From positions 160,001 to 224,000 of the forward strand of contig CAVSBO010000016.1 of NCBI GenBank assembly GCA_963726195.1: a stretch of 64,000 bases of DNA, in the 5' to 3' direction. The notes beneath the pieces were generated by a model, which saw only the letters and a list, made by a program, of their open reading frames with translations, did not search any database and had not been told where the DNA came from. Both the position numbers and the translations under genes were made by a program. The stretch comes from Candidatus Thorarchaeota archaeon. Lineage in GTDB: Archaea; Asgardarchaeota; Thorarchaeia; Thorarchaeales; Thorarchaeaceae. Shown piece by piece: positions 6,779 through 63,508 of the stretch (position 1 is its first letter; the number at the start of each line of letters is the position of its first letter).

Positions 6779-8911
6779 GTGTCTCGTGTTCTTGTGATTT
6801 CTGAGAAGCCAAATGCAGCCAAGAGAATAGCCGAAGCCCTCGACGAGAACGAGAATCCTCACGAAATCAAGGTTGGCAGTGTTTCTTATTATGAGTGCAC
6901 CAGAGGTGAGGATACGATATGGGTTGCTTATGCTCTTGGTCATCTCTACGAACTCCGCCAGACGGAAAGGGGGTGGAGCTATCCGAGACTCGAGACTGAA
7001 TGGGTTCCGAAGTACGAAGTGGAGAAGAAAAGTGCGAAGACTCGGCCTCTTGTTGCTCTCTTCAAGCGACTTGCAGGACAAGCAGATAGATTCGTGGTGG
7101 CCACTGACTACGATATCGAAGGTAGCCTGATTGGTTACTTGGTATTGAAGCTCGCCTGCGAGGTTAACACAGCAACGGCCCAAAGGATGGTGTTCTCATC
7201 GCTCACCAAATCGGATCTTGTGGAGGCATATCAGAACGTAAGGTCGAATCTTGATTTTCCAATGATAGAATCTGGTTGCGTGCGGCACCAAGTAGACTGG
7301 CTCTATGGAATCAATCTCACGCGAGCCTTCACTCTCTCGATTAGGAAGGCTAGTGGATGGTTCAGAATAGTCTCAACGGGTAGGGTGCAGGGACCGACAC
7401 TGGCATTCGTGGCCCTACGTGACAAGGAAATCAACTTGTTCGTGCCCACACCATTCTGGGACATCACCATCCAAGGTACCCATGACGGCCACGAGCTGGA
7501 AATCGAGTACAGCGGTGGTCATATTGACACGAAGACCGGGGCATACGCATTGGCTGAAGAAATCGGGGGAAGGACAGCCTATGTGGATTCAGTCAAACAG
7601 AGGTCCGTCGTGCAGCCTGCGCCAGCTCCGTTCAACCTGAGCGATTTGCAGACTGAGGCGTACAGGCAGTTCGGATTCAGGCCAAGCAGGACTCTTGCCC
7701 TAGCACAGAAGCTTTACCTTGAAGCTCTGATTTCCTATCCCAGAACGAGCAGCCAGAAGATTCCGCCAAGTCTTGATATCAAAGCCATTCTGAACGGTCT
7801 CCAACAACTGACAAGATTCGGTCCTCTTGTGAGACGCCTGCTTCAACAGCCACAGCTGACTCCGGCACAGGGTGAGAAAGACGACCCTGCTCACCCTGCA
7901 ATACATCCAACAGGGGCCCGAGCGAGCGAAGAACTGACACCAAGCGAAAAGAAGGTCTTCGACCTCGTTGTGCACAGATTCCTTGCATCATTTGGAGAAG
8001 CAGCGGTCAAGAAGACCGTCAGAGTGGAGATTTCATGTGGCGAGCACTCATTCTACATGAGAGGAGCAAAGGTACTGAAGGCAGGATGGATGGAGTTCTA
8101 TGGTCCCTTTGCACGATCAGAAGAGAGACCCGTGCCGTCACTTAGCAAGGGAGGTGAAATCTATCTTGCATCAGCGAGAGTCGATGAGAAGTATACGTCA
8201 CCGCCATCCAGGTTTAACCCATCGAGTTTGCTGAGGCTACTTGAGGAAGAGAACCTAGGTACGAAGGCCACCCGGTCCGAAATCGTTGATTCGATTGGCT
8301 CACGAGGATACACCGCGGGAGATAGATTCGAGCTGTCATCGCTCGGTTACGCTGCCTATGAGACCCTTCAACAGCACGTTCCGACACTGCTATCCGCTGA
8401 CATGACTCGCACGTTGGAAGAGAAGATGGAAGAGATACAACAGGGCTCACTTCACAGGGAGAGCGTGCTTTCAGAAGCCAAGAACAATCTTATCGGTCTA
8501 CTCGAGAACATCAGGTCTCAAGAAGATACGATTGGTCAGGCCCTAGTGAAAGGTTTGCAGAGGTATTGGAGAGAGGAACAAGAAATCGGACCATGTCCTG
8601 TTTGCAAGGACGGAACTCTCGTTGTGGTCTATTCACCAAGGAGTGGAAAGAGATTCATCGGATGCTCGAACTACCGCAAGGGCACATGTGGTACGACTTT
8701 CCCGTTGCCTCAGAAGGGGAAAATCGTTTCCCTAGACAAAGTGTGTCCTCATTGTGGTTACAGAATGATCAGAATACTGTCAGGCAGAAGAGGATGGGAA
8801 ACGTGCATCAACTGGGCGAACTGCCCGGGTCGACAAGAGGAACTCAAGACTATTGCGGAGAGGAGAGCAGGCAAAGGGAGAATCAAGCCAGTCGAGGATG
8901 GAGATACATGA
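6779..8911 (+). CDS. topA: DNA topoisomerase type IA with C-terminal zinc ribbons
   Basis: ISEKP, ATDYDIEG, STGRVQGPTL, catalytic ISYPRT, AHPAIHPT, LGTKATR. Confidence 0.97.
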   Translation: MSRVLVISEKPNAAKRIAEALDENENPHEIKVGSVSYYECTRGEDTIWVAYALGHLYELRQTERGWSYPRLETEWVPKYEVEKKSAKTRPLVALFKRLAGQADRFVVATDYDIEGSLIGYLVLKLACEVNTATAQRMVFSSLTKSDLVEAYQNVRSNLDFPMIESGCVRHQVDWLYGINLTRAFTLSIRKASGWFRIVSTGRVQGPTLAFVALRDKEINLFVPTPFWDITIQGTHDGHELEIEYSGGHIDTKTGAYALAEEIGGRTAYVDSVKQRSVVQPAPAPFNLSDLQTEAYRQFGFRPSRTLALAQKLYLEALISYPRTSSQKIPPSLDIKAILNGLQQLTRFGPLVRRLLQQPQLTPAQGEKDDPAHPAIHPTGARASEELTPSEKKVFDLVVHRFLASFGEAAVKKTVRVEISCGEHSFYMRGAKVLKAGWMEFYGPFARSEERPVPSLSKGGEIYLASARVDEKYTSPPSRFNPSSLLRLLEEENLGTKATRSEIVDSIGSRGYTAGDRFELSSLGYAAYETLQQHVPTLLSADMTRTLEEKMEEIQQGSLHRESVLSEAKNNLIGLLENIRSQEDTIGQALVKGLQRYWREEQEIGPCPVCKDGTLVVVYSPRSGKRFIGCSNYRKGTCGTTFPLPQKGKIVSLDKVCPHCGYRMIRILSGRRGWETCINWANCPGRQEELKTIAERRAGKGRIKPVEDGDT

Positions 8912-41350: not shown

Positions 41351-41663
41351 GTGCAGCGGGTAGGGCGACTCGTTTGCCGCGAGCGAGACCACATGGCAAT
41401 AGTGGCGTCAGTAACCCGGCAGAGTGTGAAACCCAACCCCCTCAGTATTCGTCGAAGGACTATGACGAGTAGTCTCTGAAGTCTATCACGGCCACAGCAA
41501 CAATCGTAGGATTGTTGTGAGTGGATTAGATTGTCGAACCGGGTCAGGCCCTGGCGGGAACAGCCCTAAGGCTAGGTGATGGAGCCTCAGAGGAAACTGC
41601 TCCGAGGAGAGCGACGAGAGACTGCCTGGGAAGGGACAGACGAAACCTAAGGAGCCGCTGCAC
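41351..41663 (+). ncRNA. ffs: Archaeal SRP (7S) RNA
   Basis: Terminal helix GTGCAGCGG/CCGCTGCAC; helix 6 with GTAG loop; helix 8 GGGT-CAGG-CCC-loop-GGG-AACA-GCCC; helix 5 GTAGTCTCT/AGAGACTGC; ~313 nt; TATA-like TTTTTA upstream and T-run downstream. Confidence 0.85.
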
Positions 41664-41688
41664 CTCCTACTGTTCTTTTTCCACCATT

Positions 41689-42160
41689 CGACAGGAATAG
41701 GCAAGTGGGCTAGCGCCGCAACCGCGACGCACACAGTCGAAAGCCCGAGGGAGAAAATCCTCTCAAGGGATATCCTTACTCCCCAAGAAGAATGCAGTAT
41801 TACATTCCCGGGAGTCTGCGGTGGTTCACGCCGCTCAAACGAGCCTTCCCGATTTCAGCGATGAAATTGGGATGAGTGATCATGACCCCACCGTGGTAAG
41901 AACTGTGGAAGGCCTCTCTGCCGTCGGGCACGATACACCGACATCACGACAGGAGAAAAAGGCCAGGTCTGTAGGAGGGATTCCATCTCAGTGATTACAG
42001 ACGAAGCCTCTGCTAACCCCGCGCCATCAGCAGTCGGGGGGCGGCGACGCCAGACAGAGGAAGGGCAGAACACAGAAGTTTCTTGCAGTTGAGCTTCACT
42101 CACATCAGAGAAACAGCGTCAGAGCAGGCTGGCTCCTTGCGCGCCGGCCTGTTTCCTTCG
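41689..42160 (+). ncRNA. Unidentified ~470-nt multi-stem structured RNA
   Basis: Long end-to-end closing stem, about 10 hairpins, two GCGA tetraloops, G-U pairs favouring + strand, no credible ORF. Confidence 0.75.
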
Positions 42161-42206
42161 CAATGTTTATGAGAACACCTGTACGCTCTTGTTTCTCGCT
42201 AGAACA

Positions 42207-42381
42207 GCCGGGGTTTCCTAGACCGGTCGGGGCGCCTTTTTTGACGCCACGGGGCGCTATGGAGCCAGCCTGCTAACATTTGAGCATTATGTGTGCTTGC
42301 AGATAGTTGGTGTCGAAAGACTCGAGGGTTCAAAGGGTCTCACGGTTTTCGTGAGGCCGGAAAGTCCCTCCCCCGGCGCCA
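42207..42381 (+). tRNA. tRNA-Ser(GCT) with three introns (D-loop 42227-42257, 37/38 42276-42304, 59/60 42335-42364)
   Basis: GCCGGGG/CCCCGGC+G+CCA; CCAGC/GTTGG anticodon stem; variable arm GTC-GAAA-GAC; GAGGG/CCCTC T-stem; BHB-like motifs at each insertion. Confidence 0.88.
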
Positions 42382-44510: not shown

Positions 44511-45692
44511 TGACATACTCCTATGACCTAAGTCAAGGGGTTCTAGCGTCGGTTGCATTCATGACCGTTGCGCCTCTGGGGGTGCCAGTGCTCCCCTCCT
44601 CTGCATCCCTTTCTGCAAAGGATTGACTCACGCCCGATGATGCCTCTGCAATATTGAATGCCGCATTGGCATCGGCATGGTCAACGTGCCCGCAAACGGG
44701 ACACCTAAACTCCTTCTTGTTCCTGTCACCAATCGAGCCACACATGCTGCAAGTCTTGGACGTATATGCAGGATTGACGTATTCGACCTCTACTCCGAGC
44801 AGCCCGGCCTTGTATTCTATCATCTTTCTCAACTGATAGAACGACCAGCTGTGCAGGGAGTATCTGAACGTTCGAGTCGTTCTTGCGGTACCTCTGATAC
44901 CGCTCAGGTCTTCTAGTCGTATCCCACATCTGTGTTCGACAGCCGTATCCACGATCTTTCGGCTCATCTGGTGGTTGAGTTCTCTGACAATCATCGATTC
45001 CCTGTTCTTTATTCTCTTCAGTTTCCGGTGCTTTCCCATCCGTTGAAGTCTTCTTCTCATCTCCTTGTACTTCTTGTGAATATGATATGCCTTCCTTCCG
45101 AGTTTCAGGACCTTTCCTGTGGCAGGAATTGCGGCCACCATCGCATGGCCCGTTGCATTCAGATCGATACCGATGTATCCGTCCGGAGGGAATGGCTCTG
45201 CTTCCTTTACAGTCACGGAGACATACAGGTGTCTCCTGTCAACCTCTATCTGGTTGATCTTAGCAAAATCGCACCTGAACCCGTACGCGAACTGCACTCT
45301 TAGAGAAGGAATCCTTATTGTTCTCTTCTCGCGATTGCACTGTATGCCTTGGGACGGAATCGTTAGCTTGACAGAACGTACTTTCTTGGTCCGCCTGTTT
45401 CGTCCGTACTTCCTGAGTACCTGGTTCGCTATCACCGAGTTCAGGCCAATGTGTTTCACGATGGGAGTCGTTAATTGAACAGGCGAATTTACTGCAATCT
45501 CTGCAATTGCTTTCGCCTTTCTCAGCTCTTCGGAGAAGTCGTGGTCGTGCCGAAGCTTGTACGTCAGTATCACTGATTCTTCTCCTCCCTGATGTACTTC
45601 TTAATGCATACTATACGAATATACGCTCCTTCTGTACATCGACTGGGTGTATGGATTCATCCCACGGCTCAAGTCGTGGGCGTTCTCTCACT
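44511..45692 (-). mobile_element. Non-autonomous IS200/IS605-family element (TnpB only)
   Basis: Left-end hairpin CCCACGACTTGAGCCGTGGG (~45661-45680); right end ...GGAGTATGTCA; no tnpA. Confidence 0.8.
44533..45573 (-). CDS. tnpB: RNA-guided endonuclease TnpB (canonical RuvC D-E-D)
   Basis: GIDLN, LEDL, YTSKTCSMCG...CPVCG, HADANAA. Confidence 0.95.
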   Translation of the reverse strand: MILTYKLRHDHDFSEELRKAKAIAEIAVNSPVQLTTPIVKHIGLNSVIANQVLRKYGRNRRTKKVRSVKLTIPSQGIQCNREKRTIRIPSLRVQFAYGFRCDFAKINQIEVDRRHLYVSVTVKEAEPFPPDGYIGIDLNATGHAMVAAIPATGKVLKLGRKAYHIHKKYKEMRRRLQRMGKHRKLKRIKNRESMIVRELNHQMSRKIVDTAVEHRCGIRLEDLSGIRGTARTTRTFRYSLHSWSFYQLRKMIEYKAGLLGVEVEYVNPAYTSKTCSMCGSIGDRNKKEFRCPVCGHVDHADANAAFNIAEASSGVSQSFAERDAEEGSTGTPRGATVMNATDARTP

Positions 45693-56435: not shown

Positions 56436-59400
56436 TCAACGACCTCCCCCGCGACAGACTCGTAGTCTAAGACGTGTGCCTTCAGCTGTTTCTTTCAGTA
56501 ATTCAATCACGACAACGCCCGTGGACGGCTCCGTGTCGCCCGTTTCGCCGAAACCTGCTGTCACAGTCAACACATACCCTTTGCTCCTTGTCCCAAACTC
56601 CACGCCGAACAGTTTCAGCTCAGGCCCACTTGGTCTCTCAACCTTTGTGGTCTTCGTCAGCGGAGATTCTTCGGATGCTTCTTCGTAGCTCTCTTCGATT
56701 TCCTCAGTGATTGCATTACTGAGTCGCTCATACTCCTCAATGCCAGGCGGCAACGGGACATCCCTAAGATCCCTGACATCGATATTGAGCTGATGACGGG
56801 TCTTCATACTAATATCCACCAGCTGTTCACACTCTGCTAGGAGCGCAACATCGTATATCCCCAGAGGACTGCGTTCAATGCAATGAAGTGCTGACTTCTT
56901 GACCAGTCCGTCCAAGACTACTGTCAAGTGCTTTTTTACACCCAGTTTCTTCAATCGTTCATTGACTTTGACCACAAGTGTGACGTCGTCGGCCTCCTTA
57001 GTCTCCAGCAGCTCTCGACAGGTGGCGGGCAAGACATAGCAGCCAAGAAGAAAGAATCGCCTATGTACCAAGGGTTTGAGACAGGTTGTGCCAACCCATT
57101 CATTCTTGCCCCTCGGTCTCTTGATTACGATGTCACCGTATTCTACGTCTTTGATGGGGTCCCACCTGAGAAGCGTGCCATCATCGGTTACAGGATACTT
57201 CCCTGACATACTGGGCTCTTTCAGCCATCCGACCACTTCATCGGTGTCTGGAGTTGTTCGAACGACGAACGGCTCGACATCCGATTCTGTCGCGTCTCGA
57301 TATTCCACTCTATACACTTGTTGTTTGACATCAATAGAGAACAACACACTTGACATCTTTTGCGGTTCCCTCCCACGCCTTGACTTCTTTCAATAGTCTT
57401 TTGACTGACTCACTGAGACCCGAGGGTTCGGGACCCGGTCTCAGATGCTGAATGGCACTATAGGCTTCAGGGCTCGGCTCAGAGAGCTTGAACCAGCGAA
57501 TTGGGAATGTTCTTGCCTCCGGCGGGGCACCATACTCAAGCATACCCATGCACGACCAACCTTCTCCCTCTTCCTCTTGAGTCTTCATCCATAGGAACTC
57601 CTGTTCCTCAAGAGAAGCAACAATGATTGGCATTCTGTTCCAGCTCTTCTGTGCAGTCTCGGCCGCTTGGCTCAAACGTTCAGGGTCTATCATACATCTG
57701 TACCAACTCAGCCGAAGGTCTAATGACTCCTGTCCCATGACCAGAGCCCCGAGCAATCTCCCTGTCGTCCTTTCAGGAAAAACGAGCCATATGTTGTAGC
57801 CGTCCTCCTGCTCTTCCCATAGCGCCTGCCCATAACGCTGAATCATTTGAACCGGCTTGTGTCTTGGAAGATTCTTCATACCGTTTGCCCTCCGGAGAAG
57901 GTTTGAGTAGATTGCTTGGTAATCATATCTTGAAACGAATTTCTGCCCGGGAGTCTTCTGTGGCTTGAAACCCATCTGGTAAAGCTGCCACTCTGCTACG
58001 GCCGACCAGAGCTGTGCCATCAACTGTGAGGCCGTGCCTTCGGTGGCTTTCTCCGCGGCTGCAAATACTGCGAGGAACAGGTTGTTGCCGTACAGGGAGA
58101 GAATGTCCTGATTGGCATTCACAACTTTCCATAGCGTTTCTCGGCTTTCCGAGTCAAGCACGTCAGCCAGATTCTGCCTTCTCTGGTTGAGCATCCGCCA
58201 TGCAAATTCTCGCTCGGTGTTGCTAAGAATGAGTCTCTTGATATCTCGTAAGTCCTCAAGAAGAGTGTTTTCTCCGGCGGGTACTGAGAGTGCCTTCCGG
58301 CAACTCCTGACAATGTCATTGCAGCAAATCTGCAGGTCACTCTTTGGCGAAACGACCCTCCTGAGGAAGTCAGCTGCGGATAACAGCCTTCTCAGTTCGC
58401 TTCTTCGGGTCTGGAGGGAATCAACTGCCGATTGGTCTGTCGGACCAGTCAACGGGGGCCTGCGACTGAAGCTGCGCCAGTCTTTGGATTTCTCGCAGGG
58501 TGGTGGAACGCTCCCGTACTCCCACCCCCTTGTTGCTTTACTCAGTTCGAAGTATGCTTTTTCAGATCGGCTTGGCTGAGGAGGGGGAAGCTCGGGTCGC
58601 AGGTGAAGCCTATCGCTCATGGGCCAACCGACCCTCGGTGACATCTTGGCGCCTATGACTCGCCACGCCGGTCTCTCAGAGCCCATTGGCTCAGCCACAG
58701 CCGCCCCAGCCCTTGGCCGGCCCAGACTGGGAATGAGAGTCATTGCACCACCCAGCATATCGGCAGCCTGTTCTTTAGTGACAGAAAGCGGGCCAAGACC
58801 CGAATCGGACGACAAGCCGAGACGATTGTACATCGGTATCGAAACCATGGTGGCTTCTAGCATCTCCAGTTTTCCAACTGTCTTCTTGCCCTTGGACAGT
58901 CCTCGAAATCTGCGTGCCCAATCGCTGAGATGAGGAACTAGGATTGTTTCTGAAAAGGGCGCTGCACTCGTGGGAGTGTCGTGTATAATCGAGCCGCATA
59001 TCAGTCCTACGCGGAGACTCTCCACCCGTAACCCGGGGAGCCATCGGCAGGTTCCATATTATCTCATCAATCTGCGAGCTTCTTGGGGAATCATAAGGTA
59101 GCGGCCTGACACAGCGACACTGGTACAGTGAACTCATTCCTGTGCGAGGTGTGCTTTCGTCAGTCCATATGATGCTTGTATTGCTCTTGGGGAGAACGCC
59201 GAGGAGCGTGTCCTCCATCATTGCAGTCAGGTGTTGGCGATGTCTTGGGACAAGCTGAGCCATCTCTGCCCAGCCACCTATGACGAACACGGTCTCGCCT
59301 GTACTGGCGTTCTTCACTTCTGACTTCACTGCATCAAACTCTGGCACTTTGCCACTGAGGATACACCCTGCGACTTCCGAATCGAGCCTCACAAATACAA

Positions 59401-61448
59401 TGCTCCGCAGAAGATGTCTCATATCCTTGTACTGTATTGGAGCAATCTTCCTCTTCTTGTTCAGGGTTTCCATGCCGAATCTTGCTTTGACGAGCTCGGT
59501 CGTGGGGAAGTCGCCGAGAATATTCAGCCAGACAATCCTCGGGCTACTATGTGATGCCATTATGGAATCGTTCAGATGATTCAACAGGTGCCAGTTCATA
59601 GAGATCCATGCCGCTGCCCGCCCGAATCCTGCTGGCGATGAAACAGGTATGTAGAGTGCTAGGTGCCTATCGTCTTTGACCCTGAACTGGAACGGGTTCT
59701 CGACTGAAACGCTGTCCAGTGGTGAGACCTTGTTCGGTGAATATGATGGTCGTTTTGAAGGGCAGAGAACGACTGCGATTCTCGGTGGTCTCTCAAGGTC
59801 ATCCTGTCTAGCTTCGGGTGCATACCAGACCCACCCGGATGCTTTCGATTCAGGTGATTGCAGATTGGCTTTGAGATAATCAATCAGCTCCTCGAACGCA
59901 CGAAGGACCCTTGATTGGCTCTGATGCGTATCTATGAGGATTACCCCTTTCTGAAGGAACTCGGGAGGGGCACTGTCCTCTGGAACCAAAGCGTAGTACT
60001 CTCGGAGCAGGCCACGTTCGTATGTGTCAAGCTGATTAAGTGTCGTGTTGGGCAGGATGGAGCCGACCGCCTCGTTCCACTCCTTTTCACTGAGGGTTGT
60101 CTTCCATAAGTAGGGAACAGGCAGCATGTCCCGTTTGCTCTTGCTCTCCTGTGAATAGAAATTGAAACTGATGGATGTTCTCGTCTTGAGCTCCAGAACC
60201 GTCACAGGTGTCCATATGGCCCCCCCAGAGACTCTCCTCCTGACGAAGAATGCGAGGTCTACCTGACCACCACCTTGTGGTGTCACAAGCGGAAGCTCCG
60301 CCACCACTATGATATGACCTGGTTTCTCCAGCATCGTGTCTCCGGAGAAGACTACGGACCTGACCGACGGTGGATGGTGAAGCCCCGAGAATAGGACCCT
60401 GTGCCAGTCGTTTCCCTCTTTCTGAATAAGGGTCGTCATCTTGCCCATGAGTTTCGTAACGTCTCTCATCAACAATTATCGCTTGGTCAATCATCTTGGC
60501 GATACGGGCACACTGCTTCTTGGCTTCTTCATCGTCTGTCGCGCTGATGACTTCAGTCGCCTTGGTTTTGAGCCAGCACGCATTCTGTGGGAGGAGTGCT
60601 TCATCAAGCATTTCGGTCGCACGCTTGCGTTTTCCTATGTTGCTCCCGTAGAGCGTGCGTATCTCGCGGGCGAGCCTGCGTAGCTCCTTGTCCGCATCTG
60701 GCCAGAAGTCTTTGCGCCCCGTTCTTTCTCCCGTATATACCCAATCGAGGAACGGCTTCAGCCTGTGAACGAGAAAGCGGATATACCCGTGGGCATCTGC
60801 AGAAGGAACATTGTAGATGAAGCACTGGCGGCAGAGTTCAATGACGTGCGCACGGATCATGTCGACAAAGTCCATCTCAGGAAGCGTCGGGTGCGAGAGT
60901 AGGTATGTGGGCCGCTTGGCGCTGCCCTTGTATCCCGCACGCCAGTAGACCTTCTTGACGACGTCAAGAGGCGTTCTTTCCGCCTCAAGATGCGGCAATA
61001 TTCTGACATTGTCGTGCCGGTACTCCCGGACCTGAAAGAACACTGGCTCAGGAAACGGATATCTCGTCACGGCCAACTCGCGCAGTACCGCACCAGCGAA
61101 GTTGATCAGCTCGTTCAGGGGGCCTATCGCGCCTTGTCGCCAGCTGTAGACCCGCTTGTGCTCATGGTTGCCGTATGGTTCTGTACTGTACCATACTATG
61201 TCGAGGTACAAGTGCCTCAAGTTAGGCTCAGCGTTCTGGAGCAGGGCGACTCCCTCAGAGGTGCGCGGGCCTACTGTTTTCAGTTGCTGTCCCAGCTGGG
61301 CCCACATGCGCAGTATGGCCTCGCAAAAGAACTTGGTTCGCTCGTTCTTCCTCCTGTTGGCCAGTTTGACAAGTGCAGACAGACCTGCATACAGGGCCTT
61401 CGCTTGGACTACTGACGGGCTGAATCTCGTCCTCTTGGCGTCCATCAA
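56436..61448 (-). CDS. Giant hypothetical gene (~1,670 codons as four overlapping ORFs) with PD-(D/E)xK nuclease-like segment
   Basis: ORFs 60087-61448, 58775-60475, 57331-59025 and 56436-57356 overlap in tandem; E-LP...G.VDL...LELKT motif at ~60180-60300. Confidence 0.6.
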
Positions 61449-61570
61449 AGATGAGTTGAAAAGCAGCTTTATAAAGAAACCGACATTTTTTGGATTTCTC
61501 CGTTTGACAATCGTGGGCCTTATAATATCCCGATTGTCGGAAAACGCATGGATAATCTTGTTGGCTTAAT

Positions 61571-61678
61571 AACTTTAAATAAACTAGTAACACAGCATGA
61601 ATACGAGTTCAAAACCTCCGGTAGAGACAGAAAAGCGAGTGAACTCATCCAAGGCGCACGTCTCAACTTTAAATAAAC
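61571..61678 (+). repeat. 14-bp direct repeat AACTTTAAATAAAC (TATA-containing) at 61571 and 61665
   Basis: Exact duplicate in the divergent intergenic region. Confidence 0.7.
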
Positions 61679-61691
61679 AGGGCGGTCGGCG

Positions 61692-63383
61692 ATGAAAGAA
61701 TTCGGGCCAATCATCACGAGTGTGAAAATCCCCATACACAGGGACGACATGACACCTGTTCAGATGACGCGATTGTCACAGATTACAGGCCGTGACACTC
61801 GCGTAATCAAGGCCTACCTAGGCGTAATCGAACGCAACCAATCGCAACTGCGCACCGGCAGAAGAACTCGGCTCGACAGAGGAACACTCGACGAACTCAC
61901 ACTGACAACACGGCAATGCAAGAACAACAGAACATCAGTTCCTCATGATTTCAAAGCAAGATTTCCCAGAATGTCCACTAATGAGTTTGGACAGTGTCGT
62001 GACACAGCAATAGCGATGTGGACAAGCTATCTCGAACTCGGGGGCGCAAGGCCTCTAACCTCAAAGAACTACAAGCCCCGTAAGATCCCACGGTGCGTAT
62101 TCCCAAATTGCTTCAGTCTTGTCCGCGATTCATCGACAAGTAAGTACACACTCGAACTGCGCGATTCGCTTGACTCGACACGCAAAGGCTCCCGACAACA
62201 CGACAAGCTTTGCATACCTCTCTCTGTTTCGGATTACCATGAGACAAGACTCGGAGAGGGCGAAGTCAAGTCCGTCAGAGTAGTCAAAGACTCTCTCCAC
62301 AAGTGGTGGGCCGTCTTCTCAGTAAACCTCGAACCAGAACCACAGGATTCCCGCGGAAAGCAACCGGCAGTCTTGGCCATAGACTTGGGCATAAAGAAAG
62401 CAGCAACAACAGTGCTCCTTACGCAGAACGGCATCAAAGAAGTACGCTACTGGAAAGGAACCGAAAAGCTCCAACACATGGCCGCATATGATGCTGCAGT
62501 TGGAGCGCTCCAGAGAGCTAAAACACAGCCGTCTGACCATAACAACGTCCCGCCATCGCTAACCGAGAAGCTCTCCAAGTTGCGTCACAAGCGGGCGAAC
62601 ATCAGCAGAGAGTACGACCGGAAGCTGGTCAAAGACATATCCCAATACGCCCTTGAGCTGAACAAGACATACAATCTATACGTTGCCATAGGCCGCCTTT
62701 CTGGAATCAGGAACCGAGCTCGAAAAGGAAACTTCCAAGGGCCTCGCTTTCGAGGCATGATTCACCGATGGTCGTTTGCCAGAGTCAGTGACTCATTTGA
62801 GCATAAACTCGCAACCCTCGGACTTAGTACACGAAGATTCCGCCGCGTTGCTGAGACCTGGACCAGCCGTGTGTGTCACAGGTGCGGGCATGTCGGCTAC
62901 AGACCTAAGCAGAGTCTCTTCATATGCGGCACCTGTGGGCTCCATACCAACGCAGACCTGAATGCTGCCGTCAACATTGGACGACGGCTTATCATGCTCA
63001 TTCCCGCTCTGCGGGATGAGACCAAGGGACTAGGAATGTCGCTTCCTCCTTGGAGGAAAGCTGCGCCAAAAGCCCCAAGGGGCAGAAACCCTAAGGGGAA
63101 GTCCCTGCCCTCCCAGAGGTCGCCCGCCTCGTTCAAAGGAGGGCCCGTGGCTGCCGACCGTGCTCAAATGCATTTGATAATGCCTGAGTGCGGCGAAGAC
63201 CCCGCCATGGAAAAGACTGTGGAAAGACCGTCTGCTCCCGGATCCACCGGCGATTCCGGGACGAATCAGCAGCAGAAGGAAACCACGCACCGGGAGAGGA
63301 ACAAAGTTCCAGAAATCTCGGGCAAAGCTCACGCACAGGCATTGGGACAACTCCCATTGTCAGACTGGCGACAGCCGTCATGA
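61692..63383 (+). CDS. tnpB: TnpB-family RNA-guided nuclease with rearranged (Fanzor/TnpB2-type) RuvC and long C-terminal tail
   Basis: AIDLG (D231), VAIGRL (G334), VAETWTS (E388), CHRC..CGTC, NADLNAA (D422). Confidence 0.85.
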   Translation: MKEFGPIITSVKIPIHRDDMTPVQMTRLSQITGRDTRVIKAYLGVIERNQSQLRTGRRTRLDRGTLDELTLTTRQCKNNRTSVPHDFKARFPRMSTNEFGQCRDTAIAMWTSYLELGGARPLTSKNYKPRKIPRCVFPNCFSLVRDSSTSKYTLELRDSLDSTRKGSRQHDKLCIPLSVSDYHETRLGEGEVKSVRVVKDSLHKWWAVFSVNLEPEPQDSRGKQPAVLAIDLGIKKAATTVLLTQNGIKEVRYWKGTEKLQHMAAYDAAVGALQRAKTQPSDHNNVPPSLTEKLSKLRHKRANISREYDRKLVKDISQYALELNKTYNLYVAIGRLSGIRNRARKGNFQGPRFRGMIHRWSFARVSDSFEHKLATLGLSTRRFRRVAETWTSRVCHRCGHVGYRPKQSLFICGTCGLHTNADLNAAVNIGRRLIMLIPALRDETKGLGMSLPPWRKAAPKAPRGRNPKGKSLPSQRSPASFKGGPVAADRAQMHLIMPECGEDPAMEKTVERPSAPGSTGDSGTNQQQKETTHRERNKVPEISGKAHAQALGQLPLSDWRQPS

Positions 63384-63508
63384 GAAGGGTGGAACACAGA
63401 AGCATCTATGTTGAGTCCACTCACCCAACAAAAGCAGAGTCTTCGACAACTTTAATAGAAAACGTCCGAGGGGTCGTTTCGCGCGAGGACTACGGTGTAT
63501 GTTCGAAC

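Follow-up and report, generated by a model that had tools for sequence, protein, structure and literature searches.

A stand-alone RNA between the SRP RNA and tRNA-Ser genes of a Thorarchaeota archaeon is very probably an orphan omegaRNA of an aCas1-TnpB mobile element

The locus and its neighbours

The window, by which we mean the whole 64,000-nucleotide stretch of DNA analysed here, belongs to contig C16 of an assembly of 2.9 Mb that is 88.9% complete. The host is a Thorarchaeota archaeon, as the sequence-only reading had supposed in naming an Asgard-type genome. A structured RNA lies at positions 41681–42122 on the + strand, in the interval between the archaeal SRP RNA gene and the gene for tRNA-Ser(GCT). 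Both flanking host genes had been recognized from the letters, and they are confirmed by Rfam and by exon comparison with relatives. The SRP RNA (41353–41661, +) is diverged and matches Rfam RF01857 with 66.6 bits (E = 2.2e-14), which is below the gathering score; a U-rich run (41668–41680) follows it directly. The tRNA-Ser(GCT) unit (42161–42381, +) comprises a promoter (42161–42175) and an intron-containing gene (42207–42381), and both the promoter and the exons are as in the relatives' empty sites. The gene is missed by ARAGORN, and its exons, compared by eye, match the intron-less genes of relatives one by one. It apparently carries three introns, in the D arm, at position 37/38 and in the T loop, while several relatives have none, one or two. 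Elsewhere in the same genome (contig C13, 134005–134095), ARAGORN calls a tRNA-Sec (TCA).

Conservation of the RNA at this position among relatives, which had been envisaged as a check, was not found. Empty SRP–tRNA-Ser(GCT) sites with a spacing of ~50–150 nt and no such RNA are present in 11 relatives. In a profile search of ~60 SRP or tRNA-Ser loci, only the window's genome had the RNA at the SRP–tRNA-Ser position; three same-genus genomes, 83–93% complete, gave no match to it. A copy of the RNA at 99% identity was found in a freshwater-sediment run, which may be the sample of origin.

Extent and fold of the RNA

Across 41680–42170, the + strand is predicted to fold more stably than its shuffled versions (z = −3.31, 0/100 shuffles as good), compared with z = −1.71 for the minus strand, in agreement with the earlier assignment to the + strand. 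The 442-nt core alone gives z = −2.38. The RNA had been taken to end at 42160; homology with other copies instead starts near 41681 and stops sharply at 42122, beyond which the 3′ flank varies at every locus.

The hairpins listed from the letters are present where they had been placed, and most of the stems correspond to covarying helices of the RNA's family (41750–63, 41778–815, 41847–72, 41914–55, 41969–42000 and 42007–60). The hairpin at 41818–34 likewise exists at its position in the window copy, but it lies outside the consensus, in which its bases pair with 41875–96. The closing helix that had been proposed between 41689–714 and 42128–60 is predicted for the window copy, whereas in the family it is absent and the 5′ end pairs locally (41693–707 with 41732–76). 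The helix is thus private to this copy, and it appears in the prediction only when the private flank up to 42160 is included. It would overlap part of the putative guide and sequester the 5′ end, and may in this way disarm the guide.

Covariation among relatives, a further check suggested by the sequence-only reading, is evident. The RNAalifold consensus of 30 homologues comprises 101 pairs, 53 of them with double changes, and 95.9% of cells pair. None of 500 shuffles reached 53 of 101, and slid controls gave at most 21 pairs and 40–45% pairing; the counts are inflated by the relatedness of the 30 homologues, and the margin over the controls is wide. The window copy keeps 93 of the 101 consensus pairs (13 via double changes), and its helix 1 is weakened, with two of six pairs broken.

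The RNA belongs to no known Rfam family, as searches at the gathering threshold and at E ≤ 10 returned nothing for it. Its earlier separation from RNase P RNA, tmRNA and introns holds, since no covariance model matched and intron motifs inspected by eye were unconvincing. Covariance models of GOLLD, ROOL, OLE, HEARO, sotRNA, group I/II introns and tmRNA gave only chance matches (E 0.87–7). The RNase P RNA model (RF00373) had no match at the RNA, and a full RNase P RNA gene, which the earlier reading had suggested looking for, lies on contig C11 (154.9 bits).

A family of RNAs at the 3′ end of tnpB

In a DNA search of 60 relatives, homologues of the RNA were found in 24 of the 36 genomes of the Thorarchaeota family and in none of the 24 genomes outside it. 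Among the matches listed, a genome often holds ~10 copies, at unrelated loci, and these either overlap the 3′ end of a gene for a ~560-aa TnpB or are gene-less. At many loci, the match spans the last ~300 nt of an ORF of 550–580 aa plus ~115 nt past its stop codon. This ORF encodes a TnpB (PF07282, PF01385), and its nearest solved structures are those of TnpB and Cas12f. The window scaffold, ~440 nt long (41681–42122, +), is ~75% identical to copies that overlap tnpB 3′ ends and is itself without a tnpB gene, a recognizable left end or its own TATA box. In several other gene-less copies, the left-end sequence is shared and a TATA-like box lies immediately upstream.

Under the window RNA (41693–41994, +), the reading frame of the tnpB C-terminal tail persists as a remnant, with its stop at 41992–41994 and a frameshift near 41720–41730. 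By tblastn, 41728–41991 is 66% identical to the TnpB tail over 88 aa, and a GKWA motif lies in a different frame. In 89 intact tnpB genes, the protein core changes at rates of 0.25/0.17/0.52 at the three codon positions. Under the RNA, the corresponding rates of 0.23/0.23/0.27 are flat, which indicates that the tail of tnpB is under RNA-level and not protein-level selection. Towards the right end, one strand of the 3′ stem (42076–42102, +) resembles an anti-repeat by its predicted duplex and ends in the motif CTTCACTCA. This differs by one mismatch from GTTCACTCA, the motif described for aCas1-TnpB loci by Altae-Tran et al. (2023; PMC10691335).

The overlap with the tnpB 3′ end, the sharp right end and a guide derived from the flank together make up the anatomy of an omegaRNA. 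Intact elements of the family have the overlap, a conserved scaffold followed by a variable guide, and a covarying multi-helix fold on the tnpB strand. In addition, the family consensus downstream of tnpB is GTTCACTCA, and a Cas1-like gene adjoins tnpB. We therefore regard it as very probable that the window RNA is a stand-alone (orphan) omegaRNA, also called reRNA, of a Thorarchaeota aCas1-TnpB mobile element. It originated from the 3′ end of tnpB, with the gene lost and the fold kept, and the copy ends at the right end of the element, with the 16 bases flanking that end in the guide position.

Stand-alone omegaRNAs that act in trans have been described (PMC10691335). The window RNA, if transcribed, may likewise be loaded in trans onto a TnpB. 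It could serve alone, as a single guide, or together with the mini-crRNA of the tnpB leader described below, to which it would be a tracrRNA-like partner. Because it has no TATA box of its own, any transcription could come only by read-through from the SRP RNA gene, and the co-transcription proposed earlier is possible. Contigs from two RNA runs cover the SRP gene only, which neither proves nor excludes expression of the RNA.

The resident element

The window also carries an element of the same family at 56–63 kb, ~20 kb from the orphan. Its TnpB (61692–63383, +; 563 aa; PF07282, PF01385) is 43% identical to the main subfamily and is the only TnpB of the omegaRNA family in the assembly. It retains the aspartates of RuvC-I and RuvC-III; the RuvC-II glutamate is replaced by glycine, and an alternative glutamate precedes the zinc finger. 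The same combination is present in all aligned family members, and a RuvC-II rearrangement of this sort has been described for the RIIr clades in PMC10691335. The omegaRNA of the resident element (63027–63443, +) is strongly diverged (nhmmer E = 1e-28), and its flank corresponds to the promoter region of tRNA-Asp, as a flank comparison with locus L165 indicates. The element lies between the RNA polymerase operon and tRNA-Asp; relatives have insertions at this spot too (L126 and L165).

Head-to-head with this tnpB lies a giant Cas1-like partner gene in four frameshifted pieces (56436–61448, −), which may reflect either true decay or an error of the assembly. The gene is intact in relatives (1640–1880 aa) and is found head-to-head with tnpB in 75 of the 120 loci that have enough flank. 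The giant protein has no match in Pfam or PDB sequence searches. The predicted fold of its N-terminal domain (pLDDT 89) has Cas1 or casposase proteins as all of its top 12 structural matches (Z 9.5–12.5, rmsd ~4), with a Foldseek E of only 0.07. With this Cas1-like partner and the GTTCACTCA motif, the element fits the aCas1-TnpB loci described in PMC10691335. Insertion footprints include a common 6-nt TCNNGA on both sides of mini-elements in two genomes (G004 and G009) and a ~12-nt duplication at locus L194; they bear on the transposase chemistry, that is, on a two-base core as in IS607 versus a target duplication as in casposons. At another locus (L020:1–1374), cas1-, cas2- and cas4-like ORFs, recognized by eye, lie immediately upstream of an orphan omegaRNA mini-element. 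The window further holds an unrelated canonical IS605-type TnpB of 346 aa with an intact catalytic glutamate (44533–45573, −), of which an 84%-identical copy is present on contig C15.

The orphan shares ~75% identity with main-subfamily RNAs and hardly aligns with the resident RNA, which indicates that it derives from a different element. The assembly, which is 88.9% complete, holds a single TnpB of the family, and since this one is a member of a diverged subfamily, the cognate protein for the orphan may be missing.

The guide position and tRNA genes

The putative guide of the window copy (42123–42138, +), which is also its right flank, is antisense to positions 36 to 21 of tRNA-Ser(GCT), with 14/14 bases matching locally and 16/16 matching the relatives' alleles. 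The segment 42123–42136 is the exact reverse complement of 42261–42274 within the tRNA-Ser gene (matching site on the − strand), and the 2.9-Mb assembly has no further match of 14 nt. The local match is preceded by ATGTT instead of TTAAT, the putative TAM of the family. No TTAAT-like site with at least 8 seed bases for the window guide was found in the assembly, and self-cleavage of the host is unlikely because a TTAAT-flanked chromosomal target is lacking. The 16-nt guide has 7 exact matches in IMG/VR; none lies behind TTAAT and none in a tRNA context, so these candidate viral targets were taken as chance matches. The adjoining flank (42139–42160), read on the minus strand, resembles a decayed tRNA-Ser 5′ end and also the right-end motif. 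In a close peat relative (run X3), the interval 41668–42119 corresponds to >650 nt of other sequence, possibly a second element or a replacement; this sequence closes with a motif resembling a right end and is followed by the same guide.

Matches to tRNAs recur across the family: of 132 distinct right flanks, 22 have a tRNA match of at least 13 nt, compared with 2 of 452 control stretches, by strict ARAGORN calls on loci that are partly kin and with a tRNA library that is incomplete. Many of the tRNA-matching flanks extend to the natural tRNA end. At L194, a tRNA-Arg(GCG) is split by the element (90–280 and 7662–7700) with the ~12-nt duplication, and the left end of the element holds an inverted, recoded and intact replacement tRNA-Arg(GCG) that has its own promoter and mismatches the guide. 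Flanks that reach the natural tRNA end, together with this split gene, suggest that the guide is the scar of an insertion, trimmed to roughly the length of a guide. At the window locus, and often elsewhere, the scar and the intact tRNA lie in opposite orientations. The distance from guide to tRNA is 90–260 nt or ~7 kb, the orientations vary, and no motif common to the upstream side of the tRNA targets was found. Casposons use a Cas1 integrase, produce ~14-nt duplications and often lie at tRNA genes. The elements described here resemble them in the predicted Cas1-fold enzyme and in insertion at tRNA genes.

Other flanks show further peculiarities. At two loci (L212 and L222), the bases in the guide position match the RNase P RNA gene in its 5′ region, and at L212 this gene lies 190 nt downstream as a direct repeat. 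The right flanks of L134, L140, L014 and L233 carry at least two tandem right-end-like units, several of them followed by short tRNA-Asp-derived stretches, possibly a proto-array.

A mini-crRNA-like unit in the tnpB leader

The leader of the resident tnpB contains a unit that resembles a minimal crRNA (61566–61678, +). It consists of TTAAT (61566–70), a target (61571–84), a repeat-like part (61637–64) and a spacer (61665–78) identical to the target; the TATA-box site that the spacer repeats lies behind TTAAT, 94 nt upstream. Such mini-units are present in 93 of 131 tnpB leaders, where they resemble the 3′ end of the RNA and are followed by the tnpB TATA box. The spacer finds a 12–18-nt match 92–99 nt upstream, behind TTAAT (63), TTCAT (11) or ATAAT (6). 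Within loci, cognate guides and targets agree at 12.6 of 14 positions versus 8.6 for non-cognate combinations, with 80 distinct guides.

The duplex of the mini-repeat with the 3′ stem in trans is predicted to be stronger than the cis stem in all 65 of 65 loci. Cognate repeat/anti-repeat pairs beat permuted ones (0/5000), a figure that is inflated by kin loci. For the orphan, its anti-repeat (42076–42102) with the resident mini-repeat is predicted at −20.1 kcal/mol versus −7.3 in cis; the resident RNA with its own mini-repeat is predicted at −19.1 kcal/mol. Anti-repeat pairing with a separate repeat–spacer RNA, as in split tracrRNA–crRNA systems, is thus found in silico. No CRISPR array was found in the assembly, beside the effector or elsewhere; the mini-unit stands alone, and some relatives have short right ends in tandem. 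On these predictions, the chances are roughly even that the large RNA has a second role as tracrRNA in self-repression at the tnpB promoter. A match of ~12 bp is enough for cutting by ISDra2 TnpB (PMC10097598). The 14-bp self-match would be cut by enzymes of this type, and an attenuated nuclease must therefore be assumed. Instead of a TAM, the TTAAT could also belong to the archaeal BRE.

Weighing the explanations

The sequence-only reading had proposed an undescribed housekeeping RNA or ribozyme co-transcribed with the SRP RNA, for which the strong structure, the absence of an Rfam match and the location directly behind the SRP gene would speak. The RNA is multicopy, mobile and homologous to the tnpB 3′ end, and it has no syntenic copy in the relatives searched, which argues against a housekeeping role; it was not found next to SRP or tRNA-Ser in ~60 loci from relatives or in the three same-genus genomes, the peat relative has a different sequence in the interval, and RNase P RNA is encoded elsewhere. 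This proposal has become highly improbable. Rather than serving a host function, the window copy is most likely a relic or a spare scaffold of recent, lineage-specific origin.

A spare scaffold may still work, and two readings assign it a task. In one, the orphan is kept since its anti-repeat pairs with the resident mini-crRNA, aiding the binding of TnpB to the leader TATA box and repression of the element. The breadth of the mini-unit among tnpB loci, its self-matches behind TTAAT-like 5-mers, the cognate guide–target identities and the predicted duplexes, including that of the orphan with the resident mini-repeat, are consistent with this. However, an RNA with nearly the same predicted pairing energy already belongs to the resident element, the two scaffolds are very different, the orphan has no recognizable promoter, and the relatives searched lack it at this locus; the doubts raised above by the BRE and by the attenuated nuclease (PMC10097598) apply as well. 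We consider this reading unlikely. Slightly less likely again is the reading in which the tRNA match is carried on purpose and steers TnpB and the Cas1-like integrase, in the manner of the delocalized crRNA of type V-K CASTs. It draws on the excess of tRNA-matching guides over controls, on several guides that lie 90–260 nt from a matching inverted tRNA, as in the window, and on a partner with a predicted Cas1/casposase fold. It is opposed by the lack of a common motif upstream of the tRNA targets and by the variable distances and orientations; 110 of the 132 guides have no tRNA match (with the incomplete library), and the flanks that reach the natural tRNA end and the split tRNA-Arg of L194 look like insertion scars. 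Both tasks could be joined if the RNA were a dual-use scaffold of an RNA-guided, Cas1-based Asgard transposon, serving as a tRNA-homing single guide and as a tracrRNA for self-repression, with orphans supplying guides in trans. This combination is equally improbable, and its guided-integration half is doubtful. The orphan omegaRNA of an aCas1-TnpB element, whatever its present use, is the identity that we favour.

Relation to known systems

The closest known systems are the aCas1-TnpB loci Cas1H-Asgard-1 and -2 (Altae-Tran et al., 2023; PMC10691335), which agree in the Asgard host, in TnpB with a Cas1-like gene and in GTTCACTCA downstream of tnpB. That paper considers a variable stretch upstream of the motif as a candidate guide. 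In the family described here, the stretch forms one strand of the terminal stem, the anti-repeat, and the motif is followed ~20 nt later by the guide. In the passages of the paper that were searched, no mention was found of the 440-nt fold, of orphan copies, of tRNA scars or of the mini-crRNA.

Omega- or reRNAs of the ISDra2 type in IS200/IS605-IS607 elements (PMC10097598) share the overlap with the tnpB 3′ end, the stop at the right end and the use of the flank as guide, and stand-alone omegaRNAs and the haloarchaeal sotRNAs (RF02656/7; PMC12558985) share gene-less copies. Compared with these, the RNA here measures ~440 versus 247 nt and has no Rfam or sequence similarity to them. Further, the TnpB is ~560 aa long with a rearranged RuvC-II (E to G, with an alternative E), the partner is Cas1-like and not a Y1 or serine TnpA, and no TAM is present at the target of the window copy. 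Because the orphan is nearly twice as long as the 247-nt ISDra2 RNA (PMC10097598), parts of it may serve other roles.

The split reRNA of TranC, with its tracrRNA and crRNA (as cited in 10.64898/2026.03.27.714800), is similar in the repeat:anti-repeat pairing with a separate short RNA, which is predicted here, and autorepression by the Cas9 long tracrRNA (PMC8730458) is similar in a short spacer aimed at its own promoter region. Unlike these systems, the family has a single mini-unit and no CRISPR array, is still on a mobile element, and its pairing is predicted. Short tRNA-matching guides are also known from the delocalized tRNA-homing crRNAs of type V-K and I-F CASTs (PMC8730458), whereas no Tn7 proteins, no motif at the tRNA targets and no fixed insertion distance are seen here. 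Stand-alone omegaRNAs are therefore a known class; judged from sequence, the present family would be set apart by its size, its Cas1-like partner, the tRNA scars and the mini-crRNA. No description of the mini-crRNA or of tRNA-derived guides was found in the literature searched, which was mostly without subscription papers.

Implications

For an Asgard TnpB, the family yields boundaries, a fold supported by covariation, the position of the guide and TTAAT as a candidate TAM. This TnpB combines a Fanzor-like rearranged active site with a Cas1-like partner, and the system is directly testable. If the predicted mini-crRNA pairing is true, the RNA would be a natural single-guide RNA that also serves as a tracrRNA, which would bear on the origin of type V CRISPR systems from transposons.
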